Source: a virus (Duplodnaviria > Caudoviricetes). From it: DNA of 64,000 nt. The DNA is taken from IMG/VR virus record IMGVR_UViG_2928716645_000002, positions 1 through 64,000 of that record. The stretch is one strand, 5' to 3'. Below the pieces are notes generated by a model. The model searched no databases. It saw only the letters and a list, made by a program, of their open reading frames with translations, and was not told the origin of the DNA. The position numbers were made by a program, and so were the translations under genes. Position 1 is the stretch's first letter, and each line of letters opens with the position of its first letter. Of this stretch, positions 2,301 through 15,825 are shown in pieces.

Positions 2301-2545
2301 ACTTCGCACCAGTCAGCACACTCGCCGATCTCGAGACGCTCGACGATGAGCAGATCAGCGAGGGCTATCGCTCGGCCGAGCGCGGAGATCCCGAGCCCGG
2401 CCCGAACCGCGGCCGCTCATTTTGGCACGGCTGGCGAAACCGTATGATCGATATGGGAGAGTTGCCTGGCGACGATGCGTCCAGGTCTTTGGCCCGCGAA
2501 TATCTGGCTGCTCAGCGGCAGCAGCGGGCATCGGAGGGAAAATGA
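2297..2545 (+). CDS. hypothetical phage protein
   Basis: ATGA overlaps on both sides. Confidence 0.55.
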   Translation: MNFAPVSTLADLETLDDEQISEGYRSAERGDPEPGPNRGRSFWHGWRNRMIDMGELPGDDASRSLAREYLAAQRQQRASEGK

Positions 2546-3075
2546 ACTTGATTGAAAGTGCCCGCGAATTCGCGCGGGAGAAGCACGCACCGCAAAAACG
2601 GAACTACACCGACGAGCCGTATTTCGTGCACCTCGAGGAGGTCGCCGGCATCGTCGAACGCGCCGGTCTCACGGAGGCCGCGATCGCCGCTGCATGGCTG
2701 CACGACACCGTCGAGGACACCGACGCCACCCTGCCCGAGATCTGCGCGAAGTTCGGCTCGGCCGTAGCGCTGATGGTGCTCGACCTCACCGACACGCCGC
2801 CAGGACCAGGCTTGAACCGTGCTAGCCGACGGGAAATCGATCGTCGGCGCCTCGCCGCGGCAGGTCCAGAAACCCAAGGGATCAAGTGCGCGGATTTGAT
2901 CAGCAACACGTCGACGATCGTGATGCACAATCGAGGTTTCGCGACCAAGTATCTGCCGGAGAAGCGCGCCACGCTCGAGATCCTGACGAAGGCGCCGGCG
3001 CCACTGCTCGATCAAGCCTGGGCGTCGCTGCGCGCGGCCGAGGTCGAACTGGCCGCTCGGCAGCAGGAGGTCTGA
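2542..3075 (+). CDS. HD-domain protein, RelA/SpoT hydrolase (SAH/Mesh1)-like
   Basis: H..QKR...EPY..H, AAWLHDTVEDT and IKCADLISN motifs; GGAGG SD. Confidence 0.85.
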   Translation: MNLIESAREFAREKHAPQKRNYTDEPYFVHLEEVAGIVERAGLTEAAIAAAWLHDTVEDTDATLPEICAKFGSAVALMVLDLTDTPPGPGLNRASRREIDRRRLAAAGPETQGIKCADLISNTSTIVMHNRGFATKYLPEKRATLEILTKAPAPLLDQAWASLRAAEVELAARQQEV

Positions 3076-3077
3076 CC

Positions 3078-3305
3078 ATGCCGCAGATTTTCCCGGGGAT
3101 CGACGATAGCGCTGTCCGGCGCGGCTCAGCTCTCGTTTGCTGCGAGGAAGAGGAACCAATCCTGTGGCCCCGATGCGAGATCACGGGGTGCGAGAACGGC
3201 ATCTGCATCGGCATGAGCAAGAGCCTTTGCTATCCCCACGGCATCGAGTTCGGCTCCTTCACCAAGGAACAATTTGAAGCCTACCGGGCTTCTCGAAAAT
3301 CGTGA
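3078..3305 (+). CDS. small Cys-rich protein
   Basis: AGGAGG SD; C-x4-C...C-x2-H pattern. Confidence 0.55.
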   Translation: MPQIFPGIDDSAVRRGSALVCCEEEEPILWPRCEITGCENGICIGMSKSLCYPHGIEFGSFTKEQFEAYRASRKS

Positions 3306-3312
3306 GCAGACT

Positions 3313-3603
3313 ATGTCGAACCCGCAGCAGCTAATCACCATGGATGAGCTCGAGGCCGGCAACATCGAACAGATGTGGCTGGAGGCAGTCGTCACGAAAC
3401 TGGACCTCAAGGGGAAGCCCGGCTCGGAGATCACCCAGGAGCGCGTGAAGGACACCAACGTCACCACGCTCTGGCACAAGAACCAGCCGGTCGCGATCTC
3501 GGTCCGGCAGCGCAACGACTGGAATTGGACCGCACTGACGATGGTCGAGATCCCGCCGATGAAGACGGAATTGGCAGGAGCGGCCGGAATCGAACCGACA
3601 TAA
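3313..3603 (+). CDS. hypothetical protein
   Basis: ORF whose 3' end runs antisense into tRNA-Trp. Confidence 0.5.
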   Translation: MSNPQQLITMDELEAGNIEQMWLEAVVTKLDLKGKPGSEITQERVKDTNVTTLWHKNQPVAISVRQRNDWNWTALTMVEIPPMKTELAGAAGIEPT

Positions 3604-3645
3604 CCGGTGTTGGAAGCCGGTGTCTTACCACTAGACGACACTCCC
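3572..3645 (-). tRNA. tRNA-Trp(CCA)
   Basis: CCGGC TT-CCA-AC ACCGG; GGTTCGATTCC; CCA end. Confidence 0.85.
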
Positions 3646-3657
3646 ATGGAGACAAGC

Positions 3658-3918
3658 ATGACAAACACGAAAGAGAGATTGGAGCAGAAGATCGGAGCGA
3701 GACGTCGCCAAGCTGGCATCACCATGGAGTCACCCAATAGCTGGCAACGCTTCGCCGTCACCGCCGTCGAGGCCGCCGTGGAGGAAATCGACGCCCTTCG
3801 CGCCTCTCTCGAAGATATCCAACGCACGGCGACAGTCGGAACGCTCGGGCCCCTCGGATACGAGGACACGTTGAGGAAGATTCGCGATCTCGTCGCGCAA
3901 GCGCTGGCCGTAGCTTGA
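3658..3918 (+). CDS. hypothetical protein
   Basis: fills the spacer between two tRNAs; GGAG SD. Confidence 0.5.
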   Translation: MTNTKERLEQKIGARRRQAGITMESPNSWQRFAVTAVEAAVEEIDALRASLEDIQRTATVGTLGPLGYEDTLRKIRDLVAQALAVA

Positions 3919-3993
3919 TGGTCCTGACTGGGTGAATCGAACACCGCGTCTCCCGGTCCACGGCCGAGCGTCCTACCATTGAACGAAGTCAGG
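3919..3993 (-). tRNA. tRNA-His(GTG), C33, A73
   Basis: CTCGG CC-GTG-GA CCGGG; acceptor CCTGACT/AGTCAGG-ACCA. Confidence 0.7.
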
Positions 3994-3998
3994 ATATG

Positions 3999-4071
3999 TG
4001 GTCGCAGGTAGCGGCTTCGAACCGCCCTATCCCGACTTATGAGATCGAGACCCTACCCGAGAGGCCCTGCG
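3999..4071 (-). tRNA. tRNA-Met/Ile(CAT) with short D-loop
   Basis: TCGAT CT-CAT-AA GTCGG; T-arm; ACCA. Confidence 0.65.
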
Positions 4072-4281
4072 ATGACTGAACTGACGGCCGCTGAGATGCG
4101 CGATCGATGCGCCAAATGGCACGACGACATGGAAGTGCGCTTTCGCCAAAAAGTGCAGGAGGTGTTGGCAATCCCAGGCCATGAGGAATCGTGCCCGGGG
4201 TTGCTTGAAGCGAATGATCAGATGGCCGATTTGCACAAGAGCTACGCGGTCGCGATGCGCGCGCTGTCGACGACACGGTGA
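4072..4281 (+). CDS. hypothetical protein
   Basis: fills inter-tRNA spacer. Confidence 0.45.
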   Translation: MTELTAAEMRDRCAKWHDDMEVRFRQKVQEVLAIPGHEESCPGLLEANDQMADLHKSYAVAMRALSTTR

Positions 4282-4358
4282 TGGGAGCCGCGACAGGCCT
4301 CGAACCTGCAGCCTACGGTTTTGGAAGCAGGCGCTCGTCCGCCTGAGCTTCACTCCCG
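4282..4358 (-). pseudogene. degenerate tRNA (CCA anticodon-like)
   Basis: D-arm and T-arm intact; acceptor and anticodon stems mispaired. Confidence 0.6.
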
Positions 4359-4365
4359 AGATCGA

Positions 4366-4442
4366 TGGCAGCGCCAGTCGGAATCCAACCGATCACCTCC
4401 GGGTCCACAACCCAGCGCTCTACCCCTTGAATTATGGCAGCT
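4366..4442 (-). tRNA. tRNA-His(GTG)-like, possibly degenerate
   Basis: CTGGG TT-GTG-GA CCCGG; T-loop TTGGATT; bulged acceptor. Confidence 0.55.
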
Positions 4443-4521
4443 CATCAGGAAGAAGGGCTAGACATCAAAGCTTTTGGTTGTACGTTCTGCGATTTTAAAC
4501 CGGGCTAGTCGGGGATTTACG

Positions 4522-4983
4522 ATGGATCAGTTTCTACGAGTATTTGGTGAAGTCTTGCAATCGAAGCCGGAATTCGTTCTTGCGGCGATAGCGACGCTCA
4601 CGATCCCTGTCGCGTTGCTTGCGGCCGCATTGAACTCTCGCCGGAGGTCAAGCACGGAACGAAAACAACTCGTCGACGAACTGTTGGCCAATCCCGCGGT
4701 GCAGGACAGGCTGCGAGATCCACAACTCAACATATCGGAATTCGTTGCTCAGATGCTGAGGAGCGCCGAAGAAGGCGAGGCATCTCCACGGCACGGTTGG
4801 GGAAGCATGTTGGCCAAGGTAAACCAAGACATCACCTGGGATGTTTCTGGTATCATCGGGCTAATCGTGACGATTGTGCTTATGATCATGGTGGTTTCGC
4901 GAAGCTATGCGGATATGCCGAAAGAGATCATAGCCGGCTGGACGACAATCTTGGGCTTCTACTTCGGCAAGGCAACGAAGTAG
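4522..4983 (+). CDS. membrane protein (about 3 TM)
   Basis: hydrophobic segments; C-terminal ILGFYFG. Confidence 0.65.
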   Translation: MDQFLRVFGEVLQSKPEFVLAAIATLTIPVALLAAALNSRRRSSTERKQLVDELLANPAVQDRLRDPQLNISEFVAQMLRSAEEGEASPRHGWGSMLAKVNQDITWDVSGIIGLIVTIVLMIMVVSRSYADMPKEIIAGWTTILGFYFGKATK

Positions 4984-5041: not shown

Positions 5042-5118
5042 TGGCAGGCGCGACAGGACTCGAACCTGTGGATGTCGGAATCAAAATCCGATGCCTTGAC
5101 CAACTTGGCTACGCGCCC
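5042..5118 (-). tRNA. tRNA-Gln(TTG)
   Basis: TCGGA TT-TTG-AT TCCGA. Confidence 0.9.
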
Positions 5119-5123: not shown

Positions 5124-5198
5124 TGGCGCTCCCTACGGGAGTCGAACCCGTTTCCTCACCTTGAAAGGGTGATATCCTGACCGGTAGACGAAGGGAGC
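5124..5198 (-). tRNA. tRNA-Glu(TTC)
   Basis: TCACC CT-TTC-AA GGTGA. Confidence 0.9.
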
Positions 5199-5202: not shown

Positions 5203-5589
5203 ATGTTTGGAAGCGAAATCGAGACCGTTACCGGCGAGATGCTGATCGAAGCCAATGAGGCGACGGTTGAACAGCGCGGGAAGATGAACGCAATCGAGGC
5301 GGTCGTGGCGAGCTTGCACAGCAGGTACCCATCGAACCAGATTGTCGCTGCCACCTTTCGGCTCCAAGCGCTCGCCTCTTTGATGAGCAAAGACGACCTG
5401 AAGGGGTTGCAGCTTCGGTTGCATGGAAAAGACCACGCGCTTATCAACGAGGCGGCCTTCCATGCCGCTGCCAAGTGTAGGCTCGTGATGCCGCCTGAGG
5501 ACGCGACCTCTCGAGACGCGCTCGCGTTCGACAAGGACGAGTTTATTCGACTGGCGATGCAGTATGCTGAGCCGGATGGCTCCGCCTGA
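5203..5589 (+). CDS. hypothetical protein
   Basis: 128 aa ORF filling the spacer. Confidence 0.55.
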   Translation: MFGSEIETVTGEMLIEANEATVEQRGKMNAIEAVVASLHSRYPSNQIVAATFRLQALASLMSKDDLKGLQLRLHGKDHALINEAAFHAAAKCRLVMPPEDATSRDALAFDKDEFIRLAMQYAEPDGSA

Positions 5590-5590: not shown

Positions 5591-5664
5591 TGGCGCGGGC
5601 TGCCGGACTCGAACCGACTTAGCCTGGGTGGAAACCAGGTGATCATCCCATGACCCAAGCCCGC
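5591..5664 (-). tRNA. tRNA-Gly(TCC)
   Basis: CCTGG TT-TCC-AC CCAGG. Confidence 0.8.
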
Positions 5665-5678: not shown

Positions 5679-5894
5679 ATGGACGAGACCGCCCAACTCA
5701 TGTCGCTGTTAGAAGCGCAGGCGAAGTCGCTCCGAGACGGCCACCTGACGATCCTGCGCTTCACCGCAAACTGGCGCGTCGGCTTCGGAACGCCGAGCGA
5801 GCGCGATGATATCGCCAAGGCAGCCGACGGGCCAACATTTGCGGCCGCCGCGCGCAAGGCCCTCGCTAATCCAACAGAGCACTGCCTCTATTAG
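5679..5894 (+). CDS. hypothetical protein
   Basis: AAGGAG SD; fills spacer. Confidence 0.6.
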   Translation: MDETAQLMSLLEAQAKSLRDGHLTILRFTANWRVGFGTPSERDDIAKAADGPTFAAAARKALANPTEHCLY

Positions 5895-5895: not shown

Positions 5896-5982
5896 TGGCG
5901 GAGAGGACAGGGATCGAACCTGCGCGTCCCGAAGGACTCGGCGCCTTAGCAAAGCGCTGCCTTACCGCTCGGCCACCTCTCC
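5896..5982 (-). tRNA. tRNA-Ser(GCT)
   Basis: GCGCT TT-GCT-AA GGCGC; long V-arm; G73. Confidence 0.9.
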
Positions 5983-6139: not shown

Positions 6140-6216
6140 TGGCGATCGCCGCCGGACTCGAACCGGCAACCTCCGCGGTAGGAATGCGGTGCTCTGTCCA
6201 GTTGAGCCAGGCGACC
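6140..6216 (-). tRNA. tRNA-Arg(CCT)
   Basis: CCGCA TT-CCT-AC CGCGG. Confidence 0.85.
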
Positions 6217-6244: not shown

Positions 6245-6793
6245 TTGGTGGAAATCAGCTACAACATCAGCGTGCGTGAGCTCCGCGCCTATTGGGAGAA
6301 GGTGCACAATCTCGCCGACGGCGAAAGGATCGGAGTGTATCCGCGGGAATGCATGCCTTCCTGGACGGGGCTATGCGATGAACTGCCTTGGGAAACGTAC
6401 ACACTCGATGGCGGATACTTCTCGGCCAAGCATCACGGATTTCGAGGCGTCTACCGACTGTTTGCCTTGGAGAACGCGGGAGATTTGAAATCGGCGCCGA
6501 CATTCCGCCGGCTTGGCGGGGACGACCCGACGGGTACACTCTACATCGGCGAGGCCGGCGATCTAGCGAAGCGCCTTAACCAGGCGCGTAGATCGGCGCG
6601 GAGCCATCGTCGTGAGGACTCCCACGGTGCCATTAGTGCGATGCGGCAAATTCCGAAGCTGAACTTCCCCATCGAGAAGATCGGGGTCGCTCTGATGTAT
6701 ACGGACAGGTTGACGCGCATGATCGAGCGCGACCTCCTCTATTCGTACATCAACACATTCGGCGACAGTCCACCGTTGAATTACAAGATTTGA
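6245..6793 (+). CDS. GIY-YIG superfamily nuclease-like protein
   Basis: GVYRLF...LYIGEAGDLAKRL...IERDLL...PPLN. Confidence 0.65.
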   Translation: MVEISYNISVRELRAYWEKVHNLADGERIGVYPRECMPSWTGLCDELPWETYTLDGGYFSAKHHGFRGVYRLFALENAGDLKSAPTFRRLGGDDPTGTLYIGEAGDLAKRLNQARRSARSHRREDSHGAISAMRQIPKLNFPIEKIGVALMYTDRLTRMIERDLLYSYINTFGDSPPLNYKI

Positions 6794-6824: not shown

Positions 6825-6900
6825 TGGCGCGCTCGGCAGGACTCGAACCCGCATGCGGCGGAGTAGAAATCCGCTGGCCGTCCAGTTGGCCCACGAGCGC
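6825..6900 (-). tRNA. tRNA-Arg(TCT)
   Basis: GCGGA TT-TCT-AC TCCGC. Confidence 0.85.
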
Positions 6901-6948: not shown

Positions 6949-7023
6949 TGGAGGTGCGGGCCGGAATCGAACCGGCTCGTGGCGGTTTTGCAGACCGCAG
7001 CGTTCCCATTTCGCCACCGCACC
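6949..7023 (-). tRNA. tRNA-Cys(GCA)
   Basis: GCGGT CT-GCA-AA ACCGC; U73. Confidence 0.9.
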
Positions 7024-7024: not shown

Positions 7025-7100
7025 TGGCAGCCTCTCGCGGGCTCGAACCGCGGACCACTCGGCTCAGAACCGAGCGCTCTACCAACTGAGCTAAGAGGCA
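7025..7100 (-). tRNA. tRNA-Gln(CTG)
   Basis: CTCGG TT-CTG-AG CCGAG. Confidence 0.85.
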
Positions 7101-7137: not shown

Positions 7138-8445
7138 TCAGTCCGCCTGCTCGAGCTGGTGGATGAACCGAAGCACCCCCTCCGAGAAGCCGTCGATTTG
7201 CGTCCAGCGGCCGTAACCGACGCCGTTCAGGTTGGAAGCGACGTTGATCATATAGGCGTGACGCGCGACCGGATCTGGCACGCGATCCGAGCTCTGCTCG
7301 TCGGTGATGACGATCAGCCGGTCGTGCTGGATCCGGTTAATATGGCTTACCGCCGCGCCGAGCGCCGTTCCGCCGTGCGGCTGAGACCGTACGATTGCGT
7401 CGACACCGGCCATGCCGCGCCGCGGTGGAACCTCGACGACTTGGTTGGAGAACGTGAAGAGACGCAGATCGGCGTTCACGACGGCGCCGAGCGCGGCCGC
7501 GGCATCGATCCTCTTCATGTCCGACTTGCCCGACATCGCCCAATCCATGGATCCGGAAACGTCGATCAGGACGACCGTCTTCCCGGCGAGCTTCGGCATC
7601 TCACCGATAGCCGCCAACAAGGCCTGATCGAGATGCGGCTCGAAGCGCGGAGCGGCCCGCGCCGCAGCCACGTAACGGAACGGGAAGACGCGTCCGGCAC
7701 CGCGCCGCGCCACGATCGCATCCCGCACCAACGCCTCGTCGACGCCGGCCTGCGCCATGTTACGCAGGTTGCGCAGCAAGGCCAGGTAGCCGAGCTTGTT
7801 CTCGCGGAGCAGGCGCTCGAAGGCCTCCTTCTTGTCAGCGCCGCCGGAGAGCGCGACCTCCCAGGTATCCGGCGTCATCAAGGTGCGGTCCCGGACGCGC
7901 TTGAACAACGCCGATTGCTCGTCATTCGCCGGTTTCGGACGAACCAGGCGCAGGACGTCGCGGAGCTTGATGGCACCGTCCCGGTCGTACTTGGCCAGGC
8001 GGTACTCGTCGAACTTCTGGAACGCCCGAGCCAGGCCGTTGCGCATCTGCGCCGGCACCATCTTGCGGCCTTTGCGCCACAGGATGGCGAGGAGTTCAGC
8101 CATCTCGTCCGCACGCTGAATGACTCGCTCGACGGTCTCGGCGACCAGTGGATTGCCGGCGCCGGTCTTCGACAGCACCTCAAGCAGGAGCAGCGGGACG
8201 TGACGCAGGTTGTGCACCTCCCTGGCCTCGATCGCGATCGCGGCCAGGATCTCAGGCTTCACCTCCGCCGCGGTCTCGACGATTCGATCGGAGATCGCCT
8301 TGCCGTCCTCATAGAACTCGCTCTCCCAAAGCAGGCAGGACATAACGGTCCGGCGGAGCTGCTGCTCGGCAGAGAGATGGCGCGCGGCCGGTCCGCCCTC
8401 GTGGGTGAAAACCGGCGCCGACTTGTGTGGGGTGTTGAGACGCAT
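7138..8445 (-). CDS. rsr: Ro60/TROVE-domain RNA-binding protein (TROVE + vWA)
   Basis: THEGGPA, FDEYRLAKY, LRDVLRLVRPKP, TWEVALS, ALLRNLRN; vWA MIDAS DVSGSM and VITDEQ; AAGGAGG SD. Confidence 0.92.
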   Translation of the reverse strand: MRLNTPHKSAPVFTHEGGPAARHLSAEQQLRRTVMSCLLWESEFYEDGKAISDRIVETAAEVKPEILAAIAIEAREVHNLRHVPLLLLEVLSKTGAGNPLVAETVERVIQRADEMAELLAILWRKGRKMVPAQMRNGLARAFQKFDEYRLAKYDRDGAIKLRDVLRLVRPKPANDEQSALFKRVRDRTLMTPDTWEVALSGGADKKEAFERLLRENKLGYLALLRNLRNMAQAGVDEALVRDAIVARRGAGRVFPFRYVAAARAAPRFEPHLDQALLAAIGEMPKLAGKTVVLIDVSGSMDWAMSGKSDMKRIDAAAALGAVVNADLRLFTFSNQVVEVPPRRGMAGVDAIVRSQPHGGTALGAAVSHINRIQHDRLIVITDEQSSDRVPDPVARHAYMINVASNLNGVGYGRWTQIDGFSEGVLRFIHQLEQAD

Positions 8446-8467
8446 GTCGTCCTCCTTCGATTTGGAA

Positions 8468-9662: not shown

Positions 9663-9665
9663 AAA

Positions 9666-9878: not shown

Positions 9879-10817
9879 ATGACAGATTTACCTTCACCGC
9901 GGCCGTACCGAGTTTTGAGCCTGGATGGCGGCGGAGCCAAAGGGTTCTACACGCTTGGAGCTCTCAAGGAGATCGAGGCGGTCGCCGGCCGGCCTCTGTG
10001 TGAGACGTTCAATCTCATCTACGGCACGAGCACGGGGGCTATCATCGCGGCTCTTCTAGGTTTGGGGAGCCGGGTCGAGGAGATCGAATCTCTTTATCGG
10101 CTGCGAGTCGTCGAAGTAATGGGTGAGATCCTACCTCGTAGGAAAACGGCCGCATTGGAAGCACTTGCACAAGACGTCTTCGGGGAACGCCGCTTTGACG
10201 CTTTCAAGACCGACATGGGCATTGTCGGCACTCGCTGGGACGACGATCGGCCAATAATCTTCAAGACCAACGCGGGGCAAGCGTTCACTGGCGTCGGTTC
10301 GTTTGAGCCGGGCTTCGGCTGCACTATAGCCGACGCAGTCGTTGGGTCGTGCTCGGCCTATCCGTTCTTTCTTAAGAAAATGGTGACGACTGGTCGTGGC
10401 GATCGGATCGAAGTCAGAGATGGCGGCTTCGTCGCGAACAATCCTACGCTCTATGCCGTCGCCGATGCCGTGGAATCGCTCGGGCATGACCGCGAAAACC
10501 TTCGGGTCGTCAGTCTCGGCGTGGGCGAATATCCCGCGCCGACACTTCCGGCCACCAGCGCACGGAAATGGATCAGCAAATGGCCGACGGTAAAATTCTC
10601 GCAGAAACTGTTGGAGATCAACACGCAGTCGATGGAGCAGCTAAGCCGTGTGTTGTTTGGCGGTGTGCCCCTTATCCGTATCAACGCGAAGTACACACAG
10701 CCCGAGATGGCAACAGACATGCTTGAGGCAAACATGGAAAAACTGGCCAAGCTTTGGAGTCGTGGACGAGACTCAGCGCGAGAGTACGACGGGGAACTTA
10801 AACGCTTTTTGATTTAG
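9879..10817 (+). CDS. patatin-like phospholipase (CBASS effector, CapE/CapV-like)
   Basis: LDGGGAKG, GTSTG and DGG motifs; directly upstream of the CD-NTase. Confidence 0.88.
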   Translation: MTDLPSPRPYRVLSLDGGGAKGFYTLGALKEIEAVAGRPLCETFNLIYGTSTGAIIAALLGLGSRVEEIESLYRLRVVEVMGEILPRRKTAALEALAQDVFGERRFDAFKTDMGIVGTRWDDDRPIIFKTNAGQAFTGVGSFEPGFGCTIADAVVGSCSAYPFFLKKMVTTGRGDRIEVRDGGFVANNPTLYAVADAVESLGHDRENLRVVSLGVGEYPAPTLPATSARKWISKWPTVKFSQKLLEINTQSMEQLSRVLFGGVPLIRINAKYTQPEMATDMLEANMEKLAKLWSRGRDSAREYDGELKRFLI

Positions 10818-10828
10818 GAGAATTGGAC

Positions 10829-11719
10829 GTGGCAATTTCGGAAGCACAACTCGAAACTTGGAACAAGCTAGGCCCTACAGCGCAGTTCACCTCCACCTAC
10901 GAAGCACTGCGAGACGTTCTGAATGATTCCAGCTCACCATACTGGCCAAAGAGCTTCGAGATATTTCTGCAGGGCTCCTACAAGAACTCTACCAACGTTT
11001 ATGGAGACAGTGATGTAGATGTGGTGATCCGCCTGGATTCGATCTTCTACACTGACCTTTATTTCCTCAGCGAGGAAGAGAAACAGCGTTACAATTCTCA
11101 ACGTACGGAGGGGAACTATAGCCTCGAGGAATTTAAAACATCGGTCATTTCTTGGCTCACCAAAAAGTATGGCAACGACGTCCAACCTGGCAACAAAGCA
11201 GTCTTCATCAAAGGCAACGGCACCAGCCGTCGAGACGCCGACGTTCTTATCTGCGCAAAGTTACGTCGCTACTATAGCTTCCCCGAGTTCGGGCAACCAC
11301 ACTACGTCGATGGAATTTGCTTTTTCTTACCCAGCGGCATCCGGATCGAGAACTTCCCCGAGAAGCACGCCGAGAACTGCACGACAAAGCACCAGGACAC
11401 GCGGCAATGGTTCAAGCCAACTGTTCGCATCTTCAAAAATCTTCGCAACACGATGATCAAAAATAAGATCATCGAAGACGGGCTGGCTCCGTCCTATTTT
11501 ATCGAGGGAATGCTGTATAACGTTCCCCCAACCAAGTTCGGTGGCAGCGAACAGATGAACTTCAAGGACGTATTGAATTGGCTGCTATCAGCAGATCGCG
11601 ACAAATTTGTTTGCGCGAACGAACAATTTAAACTTCTTGGCGGCGCGCATGTCACATGGCCTGCAGCAAACTGCACTCAGTTCTTGAATGCTGTGAAGTC
11701 CTATAATGACGCAGCTTAG
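10829..11719 (+). CDS. CD-NTase, CdnE-like cyclic nucleotide synthase
   Basis: LQGSYKNSTNVYGDSDVDV, DADV, IENFP..H, FKPTVRIFKN, PSYFIEGMLYNVP; AGGAG SD before GTG. Confidence 0.85.
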   Translation: MAISEAQLETWNKLGPTAQFTSTYEALRDVLNDSSSPYWPKSFEIFLQGSYKNSTNVYGDSDVDVVIRLDSIFYTDLYFLSEEEKQRYNSQRTEGNYSLEEFKTSVISWLTKKYGNDVQPGNKAVFIKGNGTSRRDADVLICAKLRRYYSFPEFGQPHYVDGICFFLPSGIRIENFPEKHAENCTTKHQDTRQWFKPTVRIFKNLRNTMIKNKIIEDGLAPSYFIEGMLYNVPPTKFGGSEQMNFKDVLNWLLSADRDKFVCANEQFKLLGGAHVTWPAANCTQFLNAVKSYNDAA

Positions 11720-11812
11720 TACCTATCGGCGGGGTGCGGATTAGGCACCTGCCGGCAGGTCGAGCGCAAAAGTGCAGATCAACCGCAAATCGGCAGGTGG
11801 TGCTGGTGATGA

Positions 11813-11887
11813 TGGTGGACCCGGAGGGAATTGAACCCCCTACCCGCCGCGTGCAAAACGGCCGCTCTCCCGGTGAGCTACGGGCCC
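11813..11887 (-). tRNA. tRNA-Ala(TGC)
   Basis: GCCGT TT-TGC-AC GCGGC; G3:U70. Confidence 0.9.
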
Positions 11888-12393
11888 TTGAAGTTTATTC
11901 GAGATTTGTCCTTGCCGGCGGCGCGCCAGTTCGCCATCCACTGTGCGTTGAACGCGCGCTTTGCCGTCACGCACACTTCGCACCGACACCCAAGGCGGTA
12001 CTTTCCAACGCCATGGGGAGCGGATCGACCGGTAGAACCTGCGATCTGATTGCATGACCGATGCGAAAACGAGATGTTGTTCAAATCGAAGAACGTCGCC
12101 TTCGGATCGTTCGATCTCTGCCACGAGCTCTTGTGCTCGATGGACAGTTCTTCGACGCTGTCGATTGGCTTACTGCACCTGAAACAAACGTTCAGGTCGA
12201 GCTTGCACACCAAATCGAACATGATCAGCTTGCGGAGTTGGTGACAAGCTGTCCCGAACTTCATCCCGAGCAGTTCGTCCTTGGTATCGTTTGCTCGACG
12301 CCACGCCCCGCGGCGCCGTGTGCGCAGCTCTTCGGCAGGATCAAGATCAATGGGGACTTCCCCGCCGTCGGCGGGTAAACTGGAATCGGTCAT
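11878..12393 (-). CDS. HNH-like endonuclease
   Basis: CFRC...SIEH...NNISFSHRSCN; start uncertain. Confidence 0.65.
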   Translation of the reverse strand: MTDSSLPADGGEVPIDLDPAEELRTRRRGAWRRANDTKDELLGMKFGTACHQLRKLIMFDLVCKLDLNVCFRCSKPIDSVEELSIEHKSSWQRSNDPKATFFDLNNISFSHRSCNQIAGSTGRSAPHGVGKYRLGCRCEVCVTAKRAFNAQWMANWRAAGKDKSRINFKGP

Positions 12394-12522
12394 TTGAGCC
12401 GCTACCACGGTTCGAGTGATCAGGCTCGGCTCGGTGTTACCAGCACCGGGTCGAGCCGCCACAGAATCTATCTGAACCGATAGAGCTTGCAAAGCATGCC
12501 CGCGGACCCAGCGCGCGTGCCC

Positions 12523-12610
12523 CGATAGGTTTACAGTTTCGGCGATCGCGTTGACACTTTCGCCGATACGCTTGTCAGTTTGGCCGATCTGATTGACAGC
12601 TTCGGCGAAT
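12523..12610. repeat. about four degenerate 21-bp tandem repeats
   Basis: CGAT..TTGACAGTTTCGG-like units at 12523, 12543, 12564, 12585. Confidence 0.55.
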
Positions 12611-12611
12611 T

Positions 12612-12686
12612 TGGTGCCCGGAAATGGAATCGAACCACTGACGCGCACGCCTTCAACGTGCCGCTCTACCGCTGAGCTACCCGGGC
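12612..12686 (-). tRNA. tRNA-Phe(GAA)
   Basis: GCACG TT-GAA-GG CGTGC. Confidence 0.88.
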
Positions 12687-12721
12687 AAATTGCGAGTATG
12701 CGCAATTTCGCAAACTGAAGA

Positions 12722-12795
12722 TGGCGCGGGCACCGGGAGTCGAACCCGGGCTGCGAGAGTGGCACTCTCGCCGACTACCGTAATCTTTTGCCCGC
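12722..12795 (-). tRNA. tRNA-Gly(GCC)
   Basis: CGAGA GT-GCC-AC TCTCG; atypical D-arm. Confidence 0.75.
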
Positions 12796-12802
12796 ATTGA
12801 AT

Positions 12803-12887
12803 TGGTGGGTAACCGCGGAATCGAACCGCGCACGCGCTAAGGCGCAGGTTTTACAGACCCGCTCAGTCACCAGACTTGGCGTTACCC
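12803..12887 (-). tRNA. tRNA-Tyr(GTA)
   Basis: CGGGT CT-GTA-AA ACCTG; V-arm. Confidence 0.8.
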
Positions 12888-12905
12888 GAGATGTCGCCGC
12901 GCTAG

Positions 12906-13163
12906 TTAGGCCGCGGTTTCCTTCGTCTTGGAGGTCTTGCGAAGAATTTCGTGAGCGAAGGAAATGTCAGTTGCTTTGTCGACGATCGGGCGGAAACGGC
13001 GGACGAACCAGCGATGATTTTCGTGGTTCGGATCGGCGCAACAATCGACGCGCATAAACTCAGGCTCGACCGCAAGGCATGTATAGACCTGCTTGCTACG
13101 CAAGCACGTCCCGCCGCCTCGGGCATCGATGCATTCGACAGGCTGCCCGACCCCGAACATCAT
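12906..13163 (-). CDS. hypothetical phage protein
   Basis: MMFGVGQPVECID...RRFRPIV; GAGGG SD. Confidence 0.55.
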   Translation of the reverse strand: MMFGVGQPVECIDARGGGTCLRSKQVYTCLAVEPEFMRVDCCADPNHENHRWFVRRFRPIVDKATDISFAHEILRKTSKTKETAA

Positions 13164-13180
13164 TCCCTCGTCCCCCGAAC

Positions 13181-13258
13181 TGGTTGCGTGGCCCGGGAGT
13201 CGAACCCGGTATTTCCGGCTTATGAGGCCAGCGTGGTGATCCATTCCACTCGCCCGCC
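13181..13258 (-). tRNA. tRNA-Met(CAT), initiator-like
   Basis: CTGGC CT-CAT-AA GCCGG; unpaired 1:72; ...CGCAACCA end. Confidence 0.7.
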
Positions 13259-13261
13259 AAA

Positions 13262-13352
13262 TGGTGCCGAGGCTCTCGCCTCAGCGGCGCCGACGTACGT
13301 CCGGCCTGGCGCTATTCGTTAAGTCCGACGACTAAAGATCGTTCGTGGCCGA
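13262..13352 (-). ncRNA. unknown structured RNA ending in hairpin + ACCA
   Basis: GCTGAGGC-GAGA-GCCTCGGC-ACCA; occupies a slot between tRNAs; 5' end uncertain. Confidence 0.4.
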
Positions 13353-13366
13353 ACTGAGTCTTGAAT

Positions 13367-13452
13367 TGGCGGAGAGCAGAGGAGTCGAACCCCCATCCCG
13401 AAGGAGCAACGGTTTTCAAGACCGCTGGCAGACCATCCCGCCCGTACTCTCC
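13367..13452 (-). tRNA. tRNA-Ser(TGA)
   Basis: GCGGT CT-TGA-AA ACCGT; V-arm. Confidence 0.85.
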
Positions 13453-13455
13453 AAT

Positions 13456-13533
13456 TGGCTTCCCCTGCTGGACTCGAACCAGCGGCCTCGGCCTTCGGAC
13501 GGCCGCGTTCTCACTCCACTGAGCTAAGGGGAA
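13456..13533 (-). tRNA. tRNA-Arg(CCG)
   Basis: CGGCC GT-CCG-AA GGCCG. Confidence 0.8.
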
Positions 13534-13569
13534 AAAAGGACCGGCGGCAGACGAAGCCGCCGCCGGCAA

Positions 13570-14106
13570 TCACTTCTCGAGCTCGACGTCCCAGTACAGA
13601 TAGTCCGCCCAGGACTCGTGCAGGAAGTTCGGCGGGAAGAGCCGCTGGGCCGCCAGCAGGTCAAACTGCGTCGGCTCGAACGGCGCCCGCAACGGCTTCA
13701 CGCGAAAGCGGTCCTTGCGCATGTTGCACGGACTGCACGCCGCGACGATGTTCGTCCAGGACGTCTGGCCGCCGTCGGCACGCGGGATGACGTGGTCGAA
13801 CGTCAACTCCCCCCGGAGGTGCTGCTCGCCGCAATACTGGCAGCGGAAACGATCGCGGAGGAAGACGTTGAACCGCGTGAAGGCGACCCGAGCCGGCGGC
13901 CGCACGTATTCGCGCAACGCGATCACCGACGGCAGCCGCATCTCTGTCGACGGGCTCCTGACGACCTGGTCGTATTCCGCGACAACTGCGTGAGATCCCT
14001 TAACCACCGCCTTGACCGCATCCTCCCAATTAAAGAGCGACAACGGAAAATAGCTGAGCGGTTGGAAGTCCGCGTTGAGCACCAACGCGGGGCAGTTCTG
14101 AAACAT
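13570..14106 (-). CDS. HNH endonuclease (McrA/HNH_5-like)
   Basis: LVLNADFQPL, VFLRDRFRCQYCG, TFDHVIP, NIVAACSPCN; AAGGAGG SD. Confidence 0.92.
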   Translation of the reverse strand: MFQNCPALVLNADFQPLSYFPLSLFNWEDAVKAVVKGSHAVVAEYDQVVRSPSTEMRLPSVIALREYVRPPARVAFTRFNVFLRDRFRCQYCGEQHLRGELTFDHVIPRADGGQTSWTNIVAACSPCNMRKDRFRVKPLRAPFEPTQFDLLAAQRLFPPNFLHESWADYLYWDVELEK

Positions 14107-14125
14107 CGTCGCCTCCTTGCGTTGG

Positions 14126-14201
14126 TGGTGCCCCTGGGGTGGATCGAACACCCTCATCTGACCGTTATGAGCGGCCGGCCTTCCCATCTGGCTCCAAGGG
14201 C
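14126..14201 (-). tRNA. tRNA-Ile2/Met(CAT)
   Basis: GGCCG CT-CAT-AA CGGTC. Confidence 0.75.
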
Positions 14202-14206: not shown

Positions 14207-14284
14207 TGGTCGGTGTGGCAGGATTCGAACCTGCGGCCCCTTCCGTCCGAGGGAAGTACGCTGACCTGGCTGCGCTACACACCG
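14207..14284 (-). tRNA. tRNA-Pro(CGG)
   Basis: CTTCC CT-CGG-AC GGAAG; C1:G72, A73. Confidence 0.88.
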
Positions 14285-14285: not shown

Positions 14286-14359
14286 TGGCGCCCCTGACGA
14301 GGATCGAACTCGCCTTCCCGCATCGACAGTGCGGTCCCTTCCCAGATGGGTACAGGGGC
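14286..14359 (-). tRNA. tRNA-Asp(GTC)
   Basis: CCGCA CT-GTC-GA TGCGG; G73. Confidence 0.82.
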
Positions 14360-14362: not shown

Positions 14363-14446
14363 TGGTGCGCTTGGCCGGGGTCGAACCGGCATGGTTTCCC
14401 GGCGCCCCCTCAAGACGCTGCGTCTACCGAATTCCGCCACAAGCGC
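14363..14446 (-). tRNA. tRNA-Leu(GAG)
   Basis: GCGTC TT-GAG-GG GGCGC. Confidence 0.85.
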
Positions 14447-14624: not shown

Positions 14625-14713
14625 TGGTGAACGAGGCAGGATTCGAACCTGCGCGGGGCTCAAGGCCCGTGCGGTTAAGAGCCGCGTGCCGTCGACCGCT
14701 TGGCTACTCGTCC
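14625..14713 (-). tRNA. tRNA-Lys(CTT) with long variable arm
   Basis: CGCGG CT-CTT-AA CCGCA followed by GGGC-CTTGA-GCCC hairpin. Confidence 0.8.
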
Positions 14714-14715
14714 AT

Positions 14716-14806
14716 TGGTGAACCGGGAGGGACTCAAACCCCCGATGTGGCCGTGAGGCCAGCCGGATTAAAAGTCCGGGCCGTTCGTCGTTACGGTAAC
14801 CGGTCC
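14716..14806 (-). tRNA. tRNA-Lys(TTT) with long variable arm
   Basis: CCGGA CT-TTT-AA TCCGG followed by TGGCC-TCAC-GGCCA hairpin. Confidence 0.75.
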
Positions 14807-14973: not shown

Positions 14974-15048
14974 TGGTGCACGCTGCTGGTATCGAACCAA
15001 CTGCCACTCGCTTATCAGGCGAGGCCCTCACCGGTCGGACTAACGTGC
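14974..15048 (-). tRNA. tRNA-Ile(GAT)
   Basis: CTCGC CT-GAT-AA GCGAG. Confidence 0.8.
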
Positions 15049-15079
15049 CTGGTTGAACGTGTGCAAAACTTGCACGGGC

Positions 15080-15154
15080 TGGTGCGTCCGGATGGAATTG
15101 AACCACCGGCATCGACCATGTCGGGATCGCGCTCTACCACTGAGCTACGGACGC
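15080..15154 (-). tRNA. tRNA-Val(GAC), C33
   Basis: CGATC CC-GAC-AT GGTCG. Confidence 0.82.
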
Positions 15155-15158
15155 AAAT

Positions 15159-15293
15159 TGGATCGACGCGGACCGGTCTTCACCCGTCGCCGGGCGGCCC
15201 TCTGGGTGGCGCCCAGAAACCGATGTATGGGCCTGCTCTCGCGCACTGAGCCGGCGGCGTCGCGATCGCTGCCGGCGGCACGCGCCGCGTCGA
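15159..15293 (-). ncRNA. unknown 135-nt tRNA-like ncRNA (9-bp terminal stem + TCCA)
   Basis: TCGACGCGG...CCGCGTCGA-T-CCA; 2-4 nt from flanking tRNAs. Confidence 0.65.
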
Positions 15294-15295
15294 AA

Positions 15296-15370
15296 TGGTG
15301 CGCGCCGACGGGATCGAACCGCCGACACCCTGTGTGTAGGACAGGCGCTCTACCGCTGAGCTAGGCGCGC
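15296..15370 (-). tRNA. tRNA-Val(TAC), C33
   Basis: CCTGT CC-TAC-AC ACAGG. Confidence 0.85.
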
Positions 15371-15377
15371 GATATCG

Positions 15378-15457
15378 TGGTGCCCCAGGCCGGACTCGAA
15401 CCGGCAACAGAAACTGCTTTTGAGGCAGCGGCGTCTACCACGTTCCGCCACCGGGGC
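15378..15457 (-). tRNA. tRNA-Leu(CAA), short variable region
   Basis: GCTGC CT-CAA-AA GCAGT. Confidence 0.82.
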
Positions 15458-15481
15458 AATGAAATCACAATGGAAGTGCAA

Positions 15482-15565
15482 TGGTGCGGACGGAGGGGAT
15501 CGAACCCACACTCCGAAGAACCGGTTCCTGAGACCGGCGCGTCTACCAAGTTCCGCCACGTCCGC
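15482..15565 (-). tRNA. tRNA-Leu(CAG)
   Basis: CCGGT CT-CAG-GA ACCGG. Confidence 0.88.
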
Positions 15566-15570
15566 GTTGA

Positions 15571-15646
15571 TGGTGCTGTCACCAGGGCTCGAACCTGGCG
15601 CCTCGACCCTACCAAGATCGCGCTCTACCCGATGAGCTATGACAGC
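15571..15646 (-). tRNA. tRNA-Thr(GGT)
   Basis: CGATC TT-GGT-AG GGTCG. Confidence 0.85.
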
Positions 15647-15674
15647 AAGCCGCAAGGAAAGCTTGCAGGTTGAA

Positions 15675-15749
15675 TGGTGCCCGCAGGAGGACTTGAGTCT
15701 CCGCGCGTCCGCCTACAATGCGGCTGCTCTCCATCTGAGCTATGCGGGC
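15675..15749 (-). tRNA. tRNA-Thr(TGT), aberrant T-arm
   Basis: GCCGC AT-TGT-AG GCGGA; T-loop region ACTCAAGT. Confidence 0.6.
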
Positions 15750-15750
15750 G

Positions 15751-15825
15751 TGGTGCCGGCGACAGGACTTGAACCCACAACCGTCTCCTTACGAAGGAGC
15801 TGCGCTACCGTTGCGCCACGCCGGC
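15751..15825 (-). tRNA. tRNA-Thr(CGT)
   Basis: GCTCC TT-CGT-AA GGAGA. Confidence 0.82.

Follow-up and report, generated by a model that had tools for sequence, protein, structure and literature searches.

The viral record IMGVR_UViG_2928716645_000002 is an approximately 108-kb Bradyrhizobium provirus (107,984 bp), and positions 1 to 64,000 of it make up the window. Its tRNA block forms an accessory arm of about 13 kb at the provirus end. ARAGORN identified 33 tRNA genes between positions 3572 and 15825, all on the minus strand and all (33/33) encoding CCA, and no tRNA gene elsewhere in the 107,984-bp genome. Rfam added two more, Thr(UGU) and a third tRNA with a CAU anticodon, which gave a total of 35 tRNAs covering all 20 amino acids (Table 1). 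Three extra tRNA-like units, an Arg(ACG) RNA and a His-like and a Trp-like unit, bring the sum to 38, the number of tRNA or tRNA-like genes that the preliminary description gave for this block. Under strict wobble rules, the tRNA set together with the Arg(ACG) RNA reads approximately 90% of the codons in 20 large phage genes. No phage tRNA matches GCC (Ala), the commonest codon in these genes, and therefore the tRNA set alone cannot replace the host pool; the rare codons AGA, AGG, and UUG do have matching array tRNAs. The interior of the block also holds a CBASS operon, a HicB-like gene, two HNH-type genes, and several unknown plus-strand open reading frames (ORFs).

Table 1. Genes and RNA features of the accessory arm, by position in the window
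Feature	Position	Strand	Basis
SAH, RelA/SpoT-type HD hydrolase (Mesh1/PaSpo-like), 217 aa	2422-3075	+	Pfam, PHROG, PDB matches
tRNA-Trp(CCA)	3572-3645	-	ARAGORN, Rfam
tRNA-His(GUG, C33)	3919-3993	-	ARAGORN, Rfam
tRNA(CAU)	3999-4071	-	ARAGORN
Trp-like relic	4282-4362	-	alignment to His, Trp tRNAs
His-like relic	4366-4441	-	alignment to His, Trp tRNAs
tRNA-Gln(UUG)	5042-5118	-	ARAGORN, Rfam
tRNA-Glu(UUC)	5124-5198	-	ARAGORN, Rfam
tRNA-Gly(UCC)	5591-5664	-	ARAGORN, Rfam
tRNA-Ser(GCU)	5896-5982	-	ARAGORN, Rfam
tRNA-Arg(CCU)	6140-6216	-	ARAGORN, Rfam
tRNA-Arg(UCU)	6825-6900	-	ARAGORN, Rfam
tRNA-Cys	6949-7023	-	ARAGORN, Rfam
tRNA-Gln(CUG)	7025-7100	-	ARAGORN, Rfam
Ro60 (Rsr-like; TROVE + vWA)	7138-8490	-	Pfam, PHROG
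Third Y-RNA candidate (weak)	~8478-8585	-	short 5', 3' motifs only
Y-b	8586-8717	-	fold z -6.3
Y-a	8725-8884	-	partial Rfam YrlA match, fold z -3.2
tRNA-Pro(UGG)	8952-9027	-	ARAGORN, Rfam
Non-canonical tRNA-Arg(ACG)-like RNA	9033-9111	-	fold features, conservation
tRNA-Glu(CUC)	9116-9190	-	ARAGORN, Rfam
HicB-like protein	9183-9662	+	Pfam HicB_lk_antitox E 3.5e-6; PHROG 497 E 4e-27
tRNA-Asn(GUU)	9666-9739	-	ARAGORN, Rfam
Type I CBASS, patatin-like phospholipase effector	9879-10817	+	Pfam Patatin E 3e-24; PADLOC E 2.5e-136
Type I CBASS, CD-NTase	10823-11719	+	weak SMODS; PADLOC cyclase E 3.9e-118
tRNA-Ala(UGC)	11813-11887	-	ARAGORN, Rfam
HNH-like ORF	~11878-12600	-	weak Pfam HNH E 7e-4 in ORF 11878-12765
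tRNA-Phe	12612-12686	-	ARAGORN, Rfam
tRNA-Gly(GCC, G32)	12722-12795	-	ARAGORN, Rfam
tRNA-Tyr	12803-12887	-	ARAGORN, Rfam
tRNA(CAU)	13185-13257	-	Rfam tRNA 40.7 bits
Multi-hairpin RNA	13262-13352	-	conserved in G2, G3
tRNA-Ser(UGA)	13367-13452	-	ARAGORN
tRNA-Arg(CCG, G32)	13456-13533	-	ARAGORN
HNH endonuclease	13570-14187	-	Pfam HNH E 4e-14; PHROG 16726 E 1.6e-31
tRNA(CAU), Met	14126-14201	-	ARAGORN, without Rfam match
tRNA-Pro(CGG)	14207-14284	-	ARAGORN, Rfam
tRNA-Asp	14286-14359	-	ARAGORN, Rfam
tRNA-Leu(GAG)	14363-14446	-	ARAGORN, Rfam
tRNA-Lys(CUU), class II	14625-14713	-	ARAGORN, Rfam
tRNA-Lys(UUU), class II	14716-14806	-	ARAGORN, Rfam
tRNA-Ile(GAU)	14974-15048	-	ARAGORN, Rfam
tRNA-Val(GAC, C33)	15080-15154	-	ARAGORN, Rfam
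135-nt CCA-ended RNA	15159-15293	-	between two Val genes; fold z -2.05
tRNA-Val(UAC, C33)	15296-15370	-	ARAGORN, Rfam
tRNA-Leu(CAA)	15378-15457	-	ARAGORN, Rfam
tRNA-Leu(CAG)	15482-15565	-	ARAGORN, Rfam
tRNA-Thr(GGU)	15571-15646	-	ARAGORN, Rfam
tRNA-Thr(UGU), odd T-loop	15675-15749	-	Rfam
tRNA-Thr(CGU)	15751-15825	-	ARAGORN, Rfam

The block was compared with four array-bearing Bradyrhizobium relatives, five genomes in all with this one, and with one further relative whose accessory arm is different. The order of the array genes is common to the five proviruses, and the tRNA stems have been maintained through compensatory changes. The orthologues of Gln(UUG), Glu(UUC), and Gly(UCC) keep their order in the relatives, the Arg(UCU)-Cys-Gln(CUG) stretch is 87 to 91% identical in genomes G2, G3, and G4, and tRNA-His is identical to its G3 orthologue over 80 nt. 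Several tRNAs do have the odd loops or arms that had been noted at first sight. Both tRNA-Lys genes encode long variable arms (class II), and across six Lys genes from four genomes the class-II cloverleaf has 23 pairs, of which 11 show compensatory changes; the host tRNA-Lys(UUU) gene and the Lys genes that fill the same slot in the C9-type prophage encode tRNAs of ordinary shape and 76 nt in length. Position 33 is a C in the tRNAs for His, Val(GAC), and Val(UAC), and position 32 is a purine in those for Arg(CCG), Gly(GCC), and Thr(UGU), both features recurring in several tRNAs and several genomes. Relaxed constraint could be an alternative source of these features.

The Arg(ACG) RNA combines an acceptor stem, an anticodon arm with ACG, a T arm, and a terminal ACCA with an 8-nt linker in the place of the D arm and a variable region of 19 nt. 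G3, G4, and the C9-type prophage all keep this RNA, with one compensatory pair in each of three stems, and the slot is filled in G2 by a canonical tRNA-Arg(ACG). The His-like unit (28.7 bits against the Rfam tRNA model, below threshold) and the Trp-like unit align with the His and Trp tRNAs of their own genome and of G2, and they have broken acceptor stems and retained anticodon loops; positions 4282 to 4441 are a decayed duplicate of the His-Trp tRNA pair. Two CCA-ended non-tRNA RNAs had also been proposed, and both are present, but their fold z values are weak. The multi-hairpin RNA (z = -1.1) has a terminal helix with compensatory changes in G2 and G3, and its 3' end reads ACCA here and ACGA in those two genomes. 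For the 135-nt RNA, no counterpart was found in the relatives: in G2 and G3 the two Val genes that flank it here adjoin each other directly, in the C9-type prophage the gap between them is 67 nt, and in G4 unrelated sequence lies between them. The candidate decoy RNAs are heterogeneous and do not make up a conserved set.

The presence of Ro60 on the tRNA strand was confirmed by matches to Pfam TROVE (E 9e-17), to vWA families, and to PHROG 850 RNA-binding protein (E 3e-56), and its true start is likely the ATG at position 8475. Phages of Xanthomonas, Caulobacter, and Brevundimonas, as well as IMG/VR contigs, encode homologues that are 55 to 66% identical. Upstream of it, two of the three Y RNA-like genes first reported are well supported. 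Y-a and Y-b both have a long stem at the base and a tRNA-like domain in permuted order (T arm, closed stem, and D arm), and G4 has a version of the 60-nt tRNA-like module with 93% identity. The third was not established, since its z value was -0.5 and 56/200 shuffled sequences folded equally well. The TROVE and vWA protein with tandem same-strand RNAs upstream resembles known Ro60 (Rsr) and YrlA loci (PMC4201824; Rfam RF02553), and a long stem with a permuted tRNA-like domain is likewise found in each YrlA Y RNA (Chen et al. 2014). However, the Rfam YrlA match within Y-a (positions 8771 to 8830; 43 bits; E ~1e-6) lies under the gathering score of 69, which sets it apart from known YrlA RNAs, and no RtcB ligase was found in the genome, unlike the Salmonella rsr-yrlBA-rtcBA operon (PMC7790460). 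The cassette also differs from known loci in occupying a tRNA-array junction, Pro(UGG)-Gln(CUG), where Ro60 and Y RNAs are found in three of the five array-bearing genomes. Two Ro60 protein types, only 29% identical and exchanged among relatives, occur at this junction with a common Y-RNA module, and Ro60 genes of relatives are preceded on the same strand by two or three YrlA matches.

As the preliminary description had it, a SAH-type HD hydrolase lies next to the array (Pfam HD_4 E 1e-14; PHROG 990 phosphohydrolase E 1e-33), on the strand opposite to the tRNAs. Its His, HD, ED, and D..N motifs are intact relative to Lmo0812, MESH1, and Rel hydrolase domains in the PDB, and neither a RelA_SpoT synthetase domain nor a toxSAS partner was found in the whole genome. 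The single HD_4 domain of about 200 amino acids, the catalytic motifs, and the lack of a synthetase are shared with PaSpo of Salmonella phage SSU5, whose SAH is 41% identical, and with PbcSpo of PVP-SE1. The predicted SAH stands constantly beside a tRNA array, here and in one other phage clade, a position that is not mentioned in the available parts of Jimmy et al. 2020 (PMC7229694) and Kurata et al. 2021. A SAH 70 to 84% identical flanks the array in 4/4 array-bearing relatives, so that SAH and array occur together in all five proviruses, and the record of the relative with the different arm contains neither. In at least one other phage clade, related SAHs lie within approximately 5 kb of large tRNA arrays. 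Among viral SAH loci, 18/80 had at least five tRNAs within 10 kb compared with 0/54 capsid loci; when clustered at 70% identity, the SAHs behind this link fall into only about three independent groups. Of the 80 SAH loci, 53 had neither an array nor any tRNA nearby. The closest cultured-phage SAH, among the matches listed, had no tRNAs annotated within approximately 8 kb.

The HicB-like and CBASS genes are both absent from G1 and G2, and the CBASS patch has a GC content of 0.54 compared with approximately 0.62 around it. The Ala/Phe-Asn junction, which carries CBASS here, holds other defence candidates in G2 and G3, and the junction cargo of relatives includes other CBASS, PDC-S59, and PDC-M48 genes. 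STAND-type NTPase genes are also among the junction cargo, and the defence cargo runs opposite to the tRNA strand. The HNH endonuclease, whose true start is probably below position 14126, has an 86% identical G2 orthologue in the same place. An O-antigen acetyltransferase-like gene was observed elsewhere in the window. The exchange of defence genes at fixed junctions recalls the P2/P4 prophage hotspots, in which fixed prophage positions receive strain-specific defence systems (bioRxiv 10.1101/2021.01.21.427644), except that here the hotspots are gaps between array tRNA genes and the cargo is antisense to the tRNAs.

We favor the reading, with a probability of roughly 0.55, that an inherited, ordered backbone of approximately 35 tRNAs plus SAH, with exchangeable cargo, maintains translation under tRNA attack. 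Many array tRNAs have lineage-specific non-canonical shapes. The array would sustain translation if host tRNAs were cleaved, modified, or depleted, and its altered loops and arms would make some of its members poor substrates for tRNA-targeting nucleases. Altered anticodon and variable loops let phage tRNAs evade tRNA nucleases (PMC10264068; PMC11555353; PMC11464382; PMC13096335), and arrays have been proposed or shown to act against tRNA-targeting immunity in cluster C mycobacteriophages (PMC10264068), in T5, whose tRNA-Tyr counters retron Eco7 (PMC11555353) and whose tRNA-Lys counters PARIS (PMC11464382), and in T6, where the tRNA-Tyr/SegB locus counters Septu (PMC13096335). The present array resembles these in its dense same-strand cluster, its anticodon-loop and variable-arm changes, and its internal homing-type endonucleases. 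It differs in belonging to an integrated provirus of an alphaproteobacterium rather than to a virulent phage, in the remodelling of whole arms (class-II Lys, and Arg(ACG) without a normal D arm), and in the opposite-strand defence cargo among its tRNAs, and no nuclease target is known in the host; the analysis identified no tRNA-targeting defence system of Bradyrhizobium. The SAH might strip alarmones, the 3' pyrophosphate put on tRNA CCA ends by toxic alarmone synthetases, or both: in one study, the SSU5 SAH neutralised every toxic alarmone synthetase tested (PMC7229694), and in another, SAH enzymes restored tRNA with a pyrophosphorylated CCA end (bioRxiv 10.1101/2021.04.30.441581). The exchangeable cargo on the tRNA strand consists of Ro60 with its Y RNAs, which would be an optional RNA quality-control add-on, and of homing-type endonucleases, and the opposite-strand cargo, such as CBASS, would protect the lysogen.

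An unlikely alternative is that the array boosts the tRNA supply of a large phage in a slow-growing host, that SAH degrades (p)ppGpp and so keeps the stringent response from shutting off the synthesis of tRNA and ribosomes in the infected cell, and that the odd features are drift. The set spans all 20 amino acids and not just a handful of nuclease targets; SAH has a (p)ppGpp hydrolase fold with its catalytic residues kept; SAHs are common in large phages, often without arrays; and tRNA features differ among relatives, as with class I versus class II Lys. However, the unserved GCC codon and the presence of rare-codon tRNAs do not make a supply-for-demand pattern, and the compensatory changes that preserve unusual architectures across relatives, like the repetition of C33 and purine 32, argue against drift. 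The original proposal of one interdependent system, in which array, Ro60/Y RNAs, CCA-ended mimics, and SAH replace, decoy, and rescue host tRNA, now seems distinctly unlikely. In its favor, all parts are adjacent with the RNA parts on a single strand, Ro60 occupies the same junction in three of the five genomes, and two unrelated phage contigs (L270 and L092) have an SAH no more than 2 kb from Ro60. In Rhizobium phage RHph_Y65 (Kleczkowskaviridae, NC_070967), moreover, the Ro60 gene is embedded in an array of approximately 19 tRNA genes that also includes a homing endonuclease, and a long non-coding stretch lies upstream of Ro60. That phage differs in its 207-kb circular record, its 37% identical Ro60, the lack of a nucleotide-level match to the block, and the lack of annotated SAH or defence genes in the 21-kb stretch examined. 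Against interdependence, two relatives have array and SAH without Ro60, 17/28 phage loci with a close Ro60 homologue lack any tRNA within 10 kb, SAH is near Ro60 in only 2/35 Ro60 loci, RtcB is missing, the same junctions house unrelated defence cargo, and the decoys are a mixture of two decayed duplicates, one single-genome RNA, and one with a non-conserved CCA end. It is very improbable that the prophage expresses the entire arm to benefit the host, with defence genes acting on other phages and tRNAs plus SAH serving as insurance against competitors' tRNase toxins and toxic alarmone synthetases. In favor of this reading, the element resides as a provirus in Bradyrhizobium chromosomes, with defence genes at its junctions, an O-antigen acetyltransferase-like gene, and an arm at the provirus end with host tRNA-Lys directly outside in two relatives. 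Against it, a promoter consensus scan found no more sites than in shuffled sequence, and tRNAs and defence genes, which lie on opposite strands, do not require joint expression.

The preliminary description thus stands for the tRNAs, their odd features, Ro60, and SAH, and not for the third Y RNA; across relatives, SAH accompanies the array in 5/5 genomes and Ro60 in 3/5. Its one-module idea is partly supported by the SAH linkage and the Ro60 junction, and the Ro60-less relatives and unrelated defence cargo count against it. Overall, this analysis demonstrates the architecture, conservation, and modularity of a conserved tRNA and SAH core with exchangeable add-ons rather than an obligate single system. 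It is a modular kit, each part of which is already known in other phages, and we infer that its function in these proviruses would be to counter tRNA-targeting immunity.

Comparison of the five array-bearing genomes (the genome of the window and four relatives) showed, at the level of sequence, a conserved tRNA backbone under structural constraint, with SAH, the stand-alone RelA/SpoT-type HD hydrolase, as its constant neighbour. The Ro60/Y-RNA cassette was facultative and confined to one fixed junction, and other junctions carried exchangeable defence cargo. The preliminary description had proposed that tRNAs, Ro60, Y RNAs, CCA-ended tRNA mimics and SAH form a single tRNA-protection island and had named co-occurrence in relatives as one check. 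When this comparison was made, SAH adjoined the array in all five genomes, but Ro60 and the Y RNAs were present in three, and the mimic RNAs were distributed unevenly: the tRNA-Arg(ACG)-like RNA in four, a hairpin RNA in three (with a CCA end in one) and a 135-nt RNA in the window genome, with no counterpart in any relative. A single co-inherited system does not agree with this distribution. The features are collected in the following table.

Features of the tRNA block and its surroundings (coordinates without a prefix are window positions; L061, L183 and L184 are the contigs of relatives G2, G3 and G4, and other L numbers are further viral or prophage contigs)
Feature	Location	Strand	Remarks
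SAH	2422-3075	plus	HD_4 (Pfam)
Unassigned ORFs	3274-3603, 4474-4983, 5203-5589, 5679-5894, 6245-6793	plus	coding-like GC3
Trp-like unit	4282-4362
His-like unit	4366-4441
Ro60	7138-8490	minus	Pfam TROVE E 9e-17 and vWA families; PHROG 850
Y RNA	8586-8717		candidate; upstream of Ro60; layout as 8725-8884; fold z -6.3
Y RNA	8725-8884		candidate; upstream of Ro60; YrlA match of 43 bits (gathering score 69), E ~1e-6, covering the permuted tRNA-like domain only; fold z -3.2
Ro60 cassettes, same junction	7138-8884 versus L184:8250-10453 and L186:15630-17249		two Ro60 types
tRNA-Arg(ACG)-like RNA	9033-9111; L183:5635-5716; L184:8093-8174; L268 ~9250-9330
HicB-like gene	9183-9662	plus
Type I CBASS, patatin effector	9879-10817	plus	low-GC patch
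Type I CBASS, CD-NTase	10823-11719	plus	low-GC patch
Defence cargo	9879-11719; L061:5881-6750, 9149-10468, 11645-14116; L183:7087-8924; L186:5508-9842
HNH-like ORF, weaker	~11878-12600	minus
Third CAU tRNA	13185-13257	minus	Rfam
Hairpin RNA	13262-13352
HNH endonuclease	13570-14187	minus
Class II tRNA-Lys	14625-14806; L061:4626-4711; L183:12916-13004; L184:4647-4830
135-nt RNA	15159-15293
tRNA-Thr(UGU)	15678-15749	minus	Rfam; unusual T loop
64-aa ORF	15981-16175	minus	directly upstream of first tRNA
Ku-like and ATP-dependent DNA ligase genes	20651-22133	plus	neighbouring genes
O-antigen acetyltransferase-like gene	29557-30720	plus

The record that contains the window was 107,984 bp long with 63% GC, classed as a provirus by its source and 89% complete; the window comprises its first 64 kb. 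The structural module in the window is of siphovirus type (large terminase, portal, protease, major head protein, tape measure and J-like tail protein), and a search of the 89%-complete record revealed no tyrosine integrase. It also carries a phage-borne end-joining pair of Ku-like and ligase genes and an acetyltransferase-like gene with a possible lysogenic-conversion function. In two relatives, a canonical host tRNA-Lys(UUU) gene directly flanked the provirus at its tRNA-array end (L186:4017-4092 and L187:7204-7279), and this host gene may be the attachment site. A megablast search with the whole block gave no match among cultured phages, and relatives were recovered solely via protein-seeded searches, which returned related proviruses with a capsid 72% identical to that of the window. 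Two relatives were collinear with the window genome across approximately 80 kb in whole-genome blastn, and the titles of the matching genome records name Bradyrhizobium sp. C9, B. embrapense SEMIA 6208 and sp. Ai1a-2 as hosts. All four array-bearing relatives had the array in identical gene order. The record of G1, a relative with a different accessory arm, had no tRNA, SAH or Ro60 and unrelated sequence at both ends; it stops 1.3 kb beyond the last shared gene, near the breakpoint, and absence of the array there is indistinguishable from truncation of the provirus record.

ARAGORN predicted 33 tRNA genes between 3572 and 15825, all on the minus strand and each with an encoded CCA end, often spaced by just 1 to 8 nt, and none in the rest of the 108-kb genome. 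Rfam confirmed 29 of the 33 and added two more, tRNA-Thr(UGU) and the third CAU tRNA, giving 35 tRNA genes within 12.3 kb that serve all 20 amino acids, as first described. With its density, single strand and many isoacceptors, the block is a phage tRNA array, and the addition of three tRNA-like units (Arg-, His- and Trp-like) accounts for the 38 tRNA or tRNA-like genes counted initially. The tRNA genes are under structural constraint, with syntenic orthologues in the four relatives and compensatory stem changes, two units (4282-4441) having decayed. In 20 large phage genes, the array covered approximately 86% of codons, or approximately 90% when the odd Arg RNA was counted, and it had no reader for GCC, the commonest codon; thus, the array neither matches its supply to demand nor is fully autonomous. 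A scan for sigma-70 promoters and terminators found sites no more numerous than in shuffled sequence, and therefore no transcription units were drawn. The 64-aa ORF upstream of the first tRNA, which had 93% protein identity in G2, may mark the start of the array transcription unit.

Systematically odd loops and arms had been noted among these genes, and we observed long Lys variable arms, C33, purine-32 and a non-canonical Arg(ACG). Both window tRNA-Lys genes had long variable arms, and the Lys tRNAs predicted in four related prophages were all class II, with 86 to 91 nt, pairing within the variable arm, and A or U at position 73. Their cloverleaf comprised 23 pairs, 11 of which showed compensatory changes among six genes from four genomes. 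An ordinary 76-nt tRNA-Lys was encoded by the host gene directly outside the prophage and by the C9-type prophage genes in the same slot. In the window, the His tRNA and the two Val tRNAs had C33, as did His, Ile or Val tRNAs of relatives, and purine-32 recurred in Arg(CCG), Gly(GCC) and Thr(UGU). Across the lineage, arm length was unusually variable: the G4 tRNA-Leu(CAG) and tRNA-Leu(CAA) (L184:2685-2844) had variable loops of just 5 nt and were class I-like with 77 to 79 nt, while some Asn, Gln and Met tRNAs of G3 and G4 reached 84 to 89 nt. The G2 orthologue of tRNA-Leu(CAA) (L061:3817-3896; 75 of 80 nt identical to window 15378-15457) carried the anticodon CGA, which reads a Ser codon, and kept the Leu-type body and A73, an anticodon shift with an unchanged body.

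The RNAs proposed as tRNA mimics were present and proved heterogeneous, with four kinds distinguished. The tRNA-Arg(ACG)-like RNA had a perfect acceptor stem, an ACG anticodon arm, a T arm and ACCA, with an 8-nt linker in place of the D arm and a variable region of 19 nt. Three relatives retained it, each of the three stems showing one compensatory pair, an ordinary tRNA-Arg(ACG) occupied exactly the same slot in the fourth, and it is the sole phage-encoded reader of CGC, the commonest Arg codon. We interpret this RNA as a putative non-canonical tRNA rather than a decoy. The CCGG that follows its acceptor stem might form pairs with a CTGG of the variable region, which would enclose the anticodon arm in a D-like helix; both segments are invariant among relatives, and covariation is thus uninformative on this pairing. 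The His-like and Trp-like units aligned to His and Trp tRNAs and had broken acceptor stems, which identifies them, from their alignment, as a decaying duplicate of the His-Trp tRNA pair. A CCA-ended mimic at the Trp-like unit was rejected, since the CCA of this unit is part of its terminal stem and its sequence aligns to tRNA-Trp. The hairpin RNA had compensatory changes in its terminal helix and ended in ACGA, not ACCA, in the two relatives that conserve it.

SAH lay beside the array as described and carried the HD_4 domain, but on the plus strand, opposite to the tRNAs. Aligned to Lmo0812, MESH1 and Rel hydrolase domains, it retained the catalytic His, HD, ED and D..N motifs. No RelA_SpoT synthetase domain (PF04607) was found in the genome and the ORFs neighbouring SAH had no Pfam match; thus, SAH is a predicted stand-alone small alarmone hydrolase, and on the same grounds we discarded the proposal that it acts as antitoxin to an adjacent toxSAS. 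Among 80 related SAH loci in viruses, at least 10 tRNAs lay within 10 kb in 11 and at least 5 in 18, versus 0 of the 54 capsid loci compared, and 53 had none; the tRNA-associated loci collapse to approximately three SAH clusters at 70% identity. None of the chromosomal SAH homologues in 77 bacterial genomes was beside an array. Two unrelated viral contigs had an SAH homologue within 2 kb of Ro60 (L270:7639-11650 and L092:10001-13012); L270 also had three Y-like RNAs, with no tRNA in the surrounding 10 kb. Neutralisation of toxSASs by phage SAHs (PMC7229694) and restoration of pyrophosphorylated tRNA by SAHs (bioRxiv 10.1101/2021.04.30.441581) have been described; because of these activities, the array-associated SAH may counter alarmone-based or CCA-pyrophosphorylating toxins.

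Ro60 was located on the tRNA strand, as initially reported, and contained TROVE and vWA domains, in that order; its start is probably the ATG at 8475. Two of the three proposed Y RNA-like genes are convincing candidates by sequence and fold, while the third, adjoining the Ro60 start, folded no better than shuffled sequence (z -0.5). Ro60 homologues in Caulobacter phage CcrColossus and Xanthomonas phage Olaya had two or three YrlA matches directly upstream, in agreement with Chen et al. 2014 (PMC4201824). The cassette was always at the tRNA-Pro(UGG)/tRNA-Gln(CUG) junction, and these two tRNAs were adjacent in the two array-bearing genomes that lack it. Prophages of Ai1a-2 and C9 carried a 552-aa Ro60 type only 29% identical to that of the window, and a 60-nt tRNA-like Y-RNA module was 93% identical between the two cassette types. 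The diverged G4 Ro60 was missed with the window Ro60 as the query and emerged from a match to the 60-nt Y-RNA module and from a search by Pfam family. The type-B cassette had approximately four Y-like units with a common GAGCCCCAG motif. Of 28 viral loci with a close Ro60 homologue, 17 had no tRNA within 10 kb and one was within an 11-tRNA array; the cultured Rhizobium phage RHph_Y65 likewise has Ro60 inside a tRNA array, of approximately 19 tRNAs. An Rtc-type repair operon (rsr-yrlBA-rtcBA) was rejected because RtcB is absent, with no PF01139 match in the genome and matches in control genomes.

The initial finding did not include the CBASS and HicB-like cargo. A CD-NTase (PADLOC cyclase E 3.9e-118) adjoined a single patatin phospholipase effector (E 2.5e-136), 5 nt apart on one strand, which identifies a type I CBASS. 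Gaps between tRNAs of relatives contained a different CD-NTase, a PDC-S59 candidate, an 823-aa AAA_16 ATPase and, together with a partner, a PDC-M48B protein (E 1e-136); most of this cargo ran antisense to the tRNAs. The interval that separates host tRNA-Lys from SAH, directly outside the C9 array, contained a 1,444-aa STAND-like NTPase. The same Ala/Phe-Asn slot held CBASS in the window, PDC-S59 in G2 and PDC-M48 in G3. As judged from these gene contents, the tRNA-array gaps are insertion slots for defence systems. One HNH gene was common to a relative at 86% identity. Of the five plus-strand ORFs between minus-strand tRNAs, 4474-4983 had no match in Pfam or NCBIfam and the others had none in Pfam, PHROGs, PADLOC or NCBIfam; nucleotides 3305-3652, which include most of the first ORF, were 91% identical in G3, and 6245-6793 gave a weak GIY-YIG lead (protein atlas score 0.93). 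In phage tRNA regions, resident homing endonucleases drive inheritance and amplification (PMC13096335).

Since tRNAs of other phages sustain translation under attack on host tRNAs (PMC10264068, PMC11555353, PMC11464382), those of the array would likewise sustain translation while host tRNAs are under attack, and Ro60 would contribute RNA quality control. A more ambitious reading, to which we give roughly one chance in five, is that co-adaptation has made the array a partly orthogonal tRNA set, with bodies rebuilt so as to escape recognition by host immune nucleases and CCA-modifying toxins (class II Lys, C33 and purine-32 loops, and Arg(ACG) with D-arm elements apparently moved to the variable region). 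SAH would then restore blocked CCA ends and Ro60/Y RNAs would clear damaged tRNA, forming a multi-layer anti-tRNA-immunity arm of a temperate phage.

Phage tRNA arrays, phage SAHs, phage Ro60/YrlA and prophage defence hotspots have each been described; what is new is that SAH constantly accompanies the array, that Ro60 has a fixed slot in which one type replaces another, that gaps in the tRNA array serve as slots for defence cargo and that tRNA bodies are rebuilt. To our knowledge, recent demonstrations that phage tRNAs defeat tRNA-cutting immunity have to date concerned single tRNAs in virulent coliphages. One ordered array in five related prophages of a nitrogen-fixing, agriculturally important host genus provides a natural comparison series, in which SAH is constant, Ro60/Y RNAs are present or absent, Lys is class I or class II and Arg(ACG) is canonical or rebuilt. 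Swaps of these natural alleles would make it testable whether the parts cooperate and whether re-architected tRNA bodies decode while escaping nucleases, and the locus shows that tRNA-array gaps can act as insertion hotspots for defence systems.
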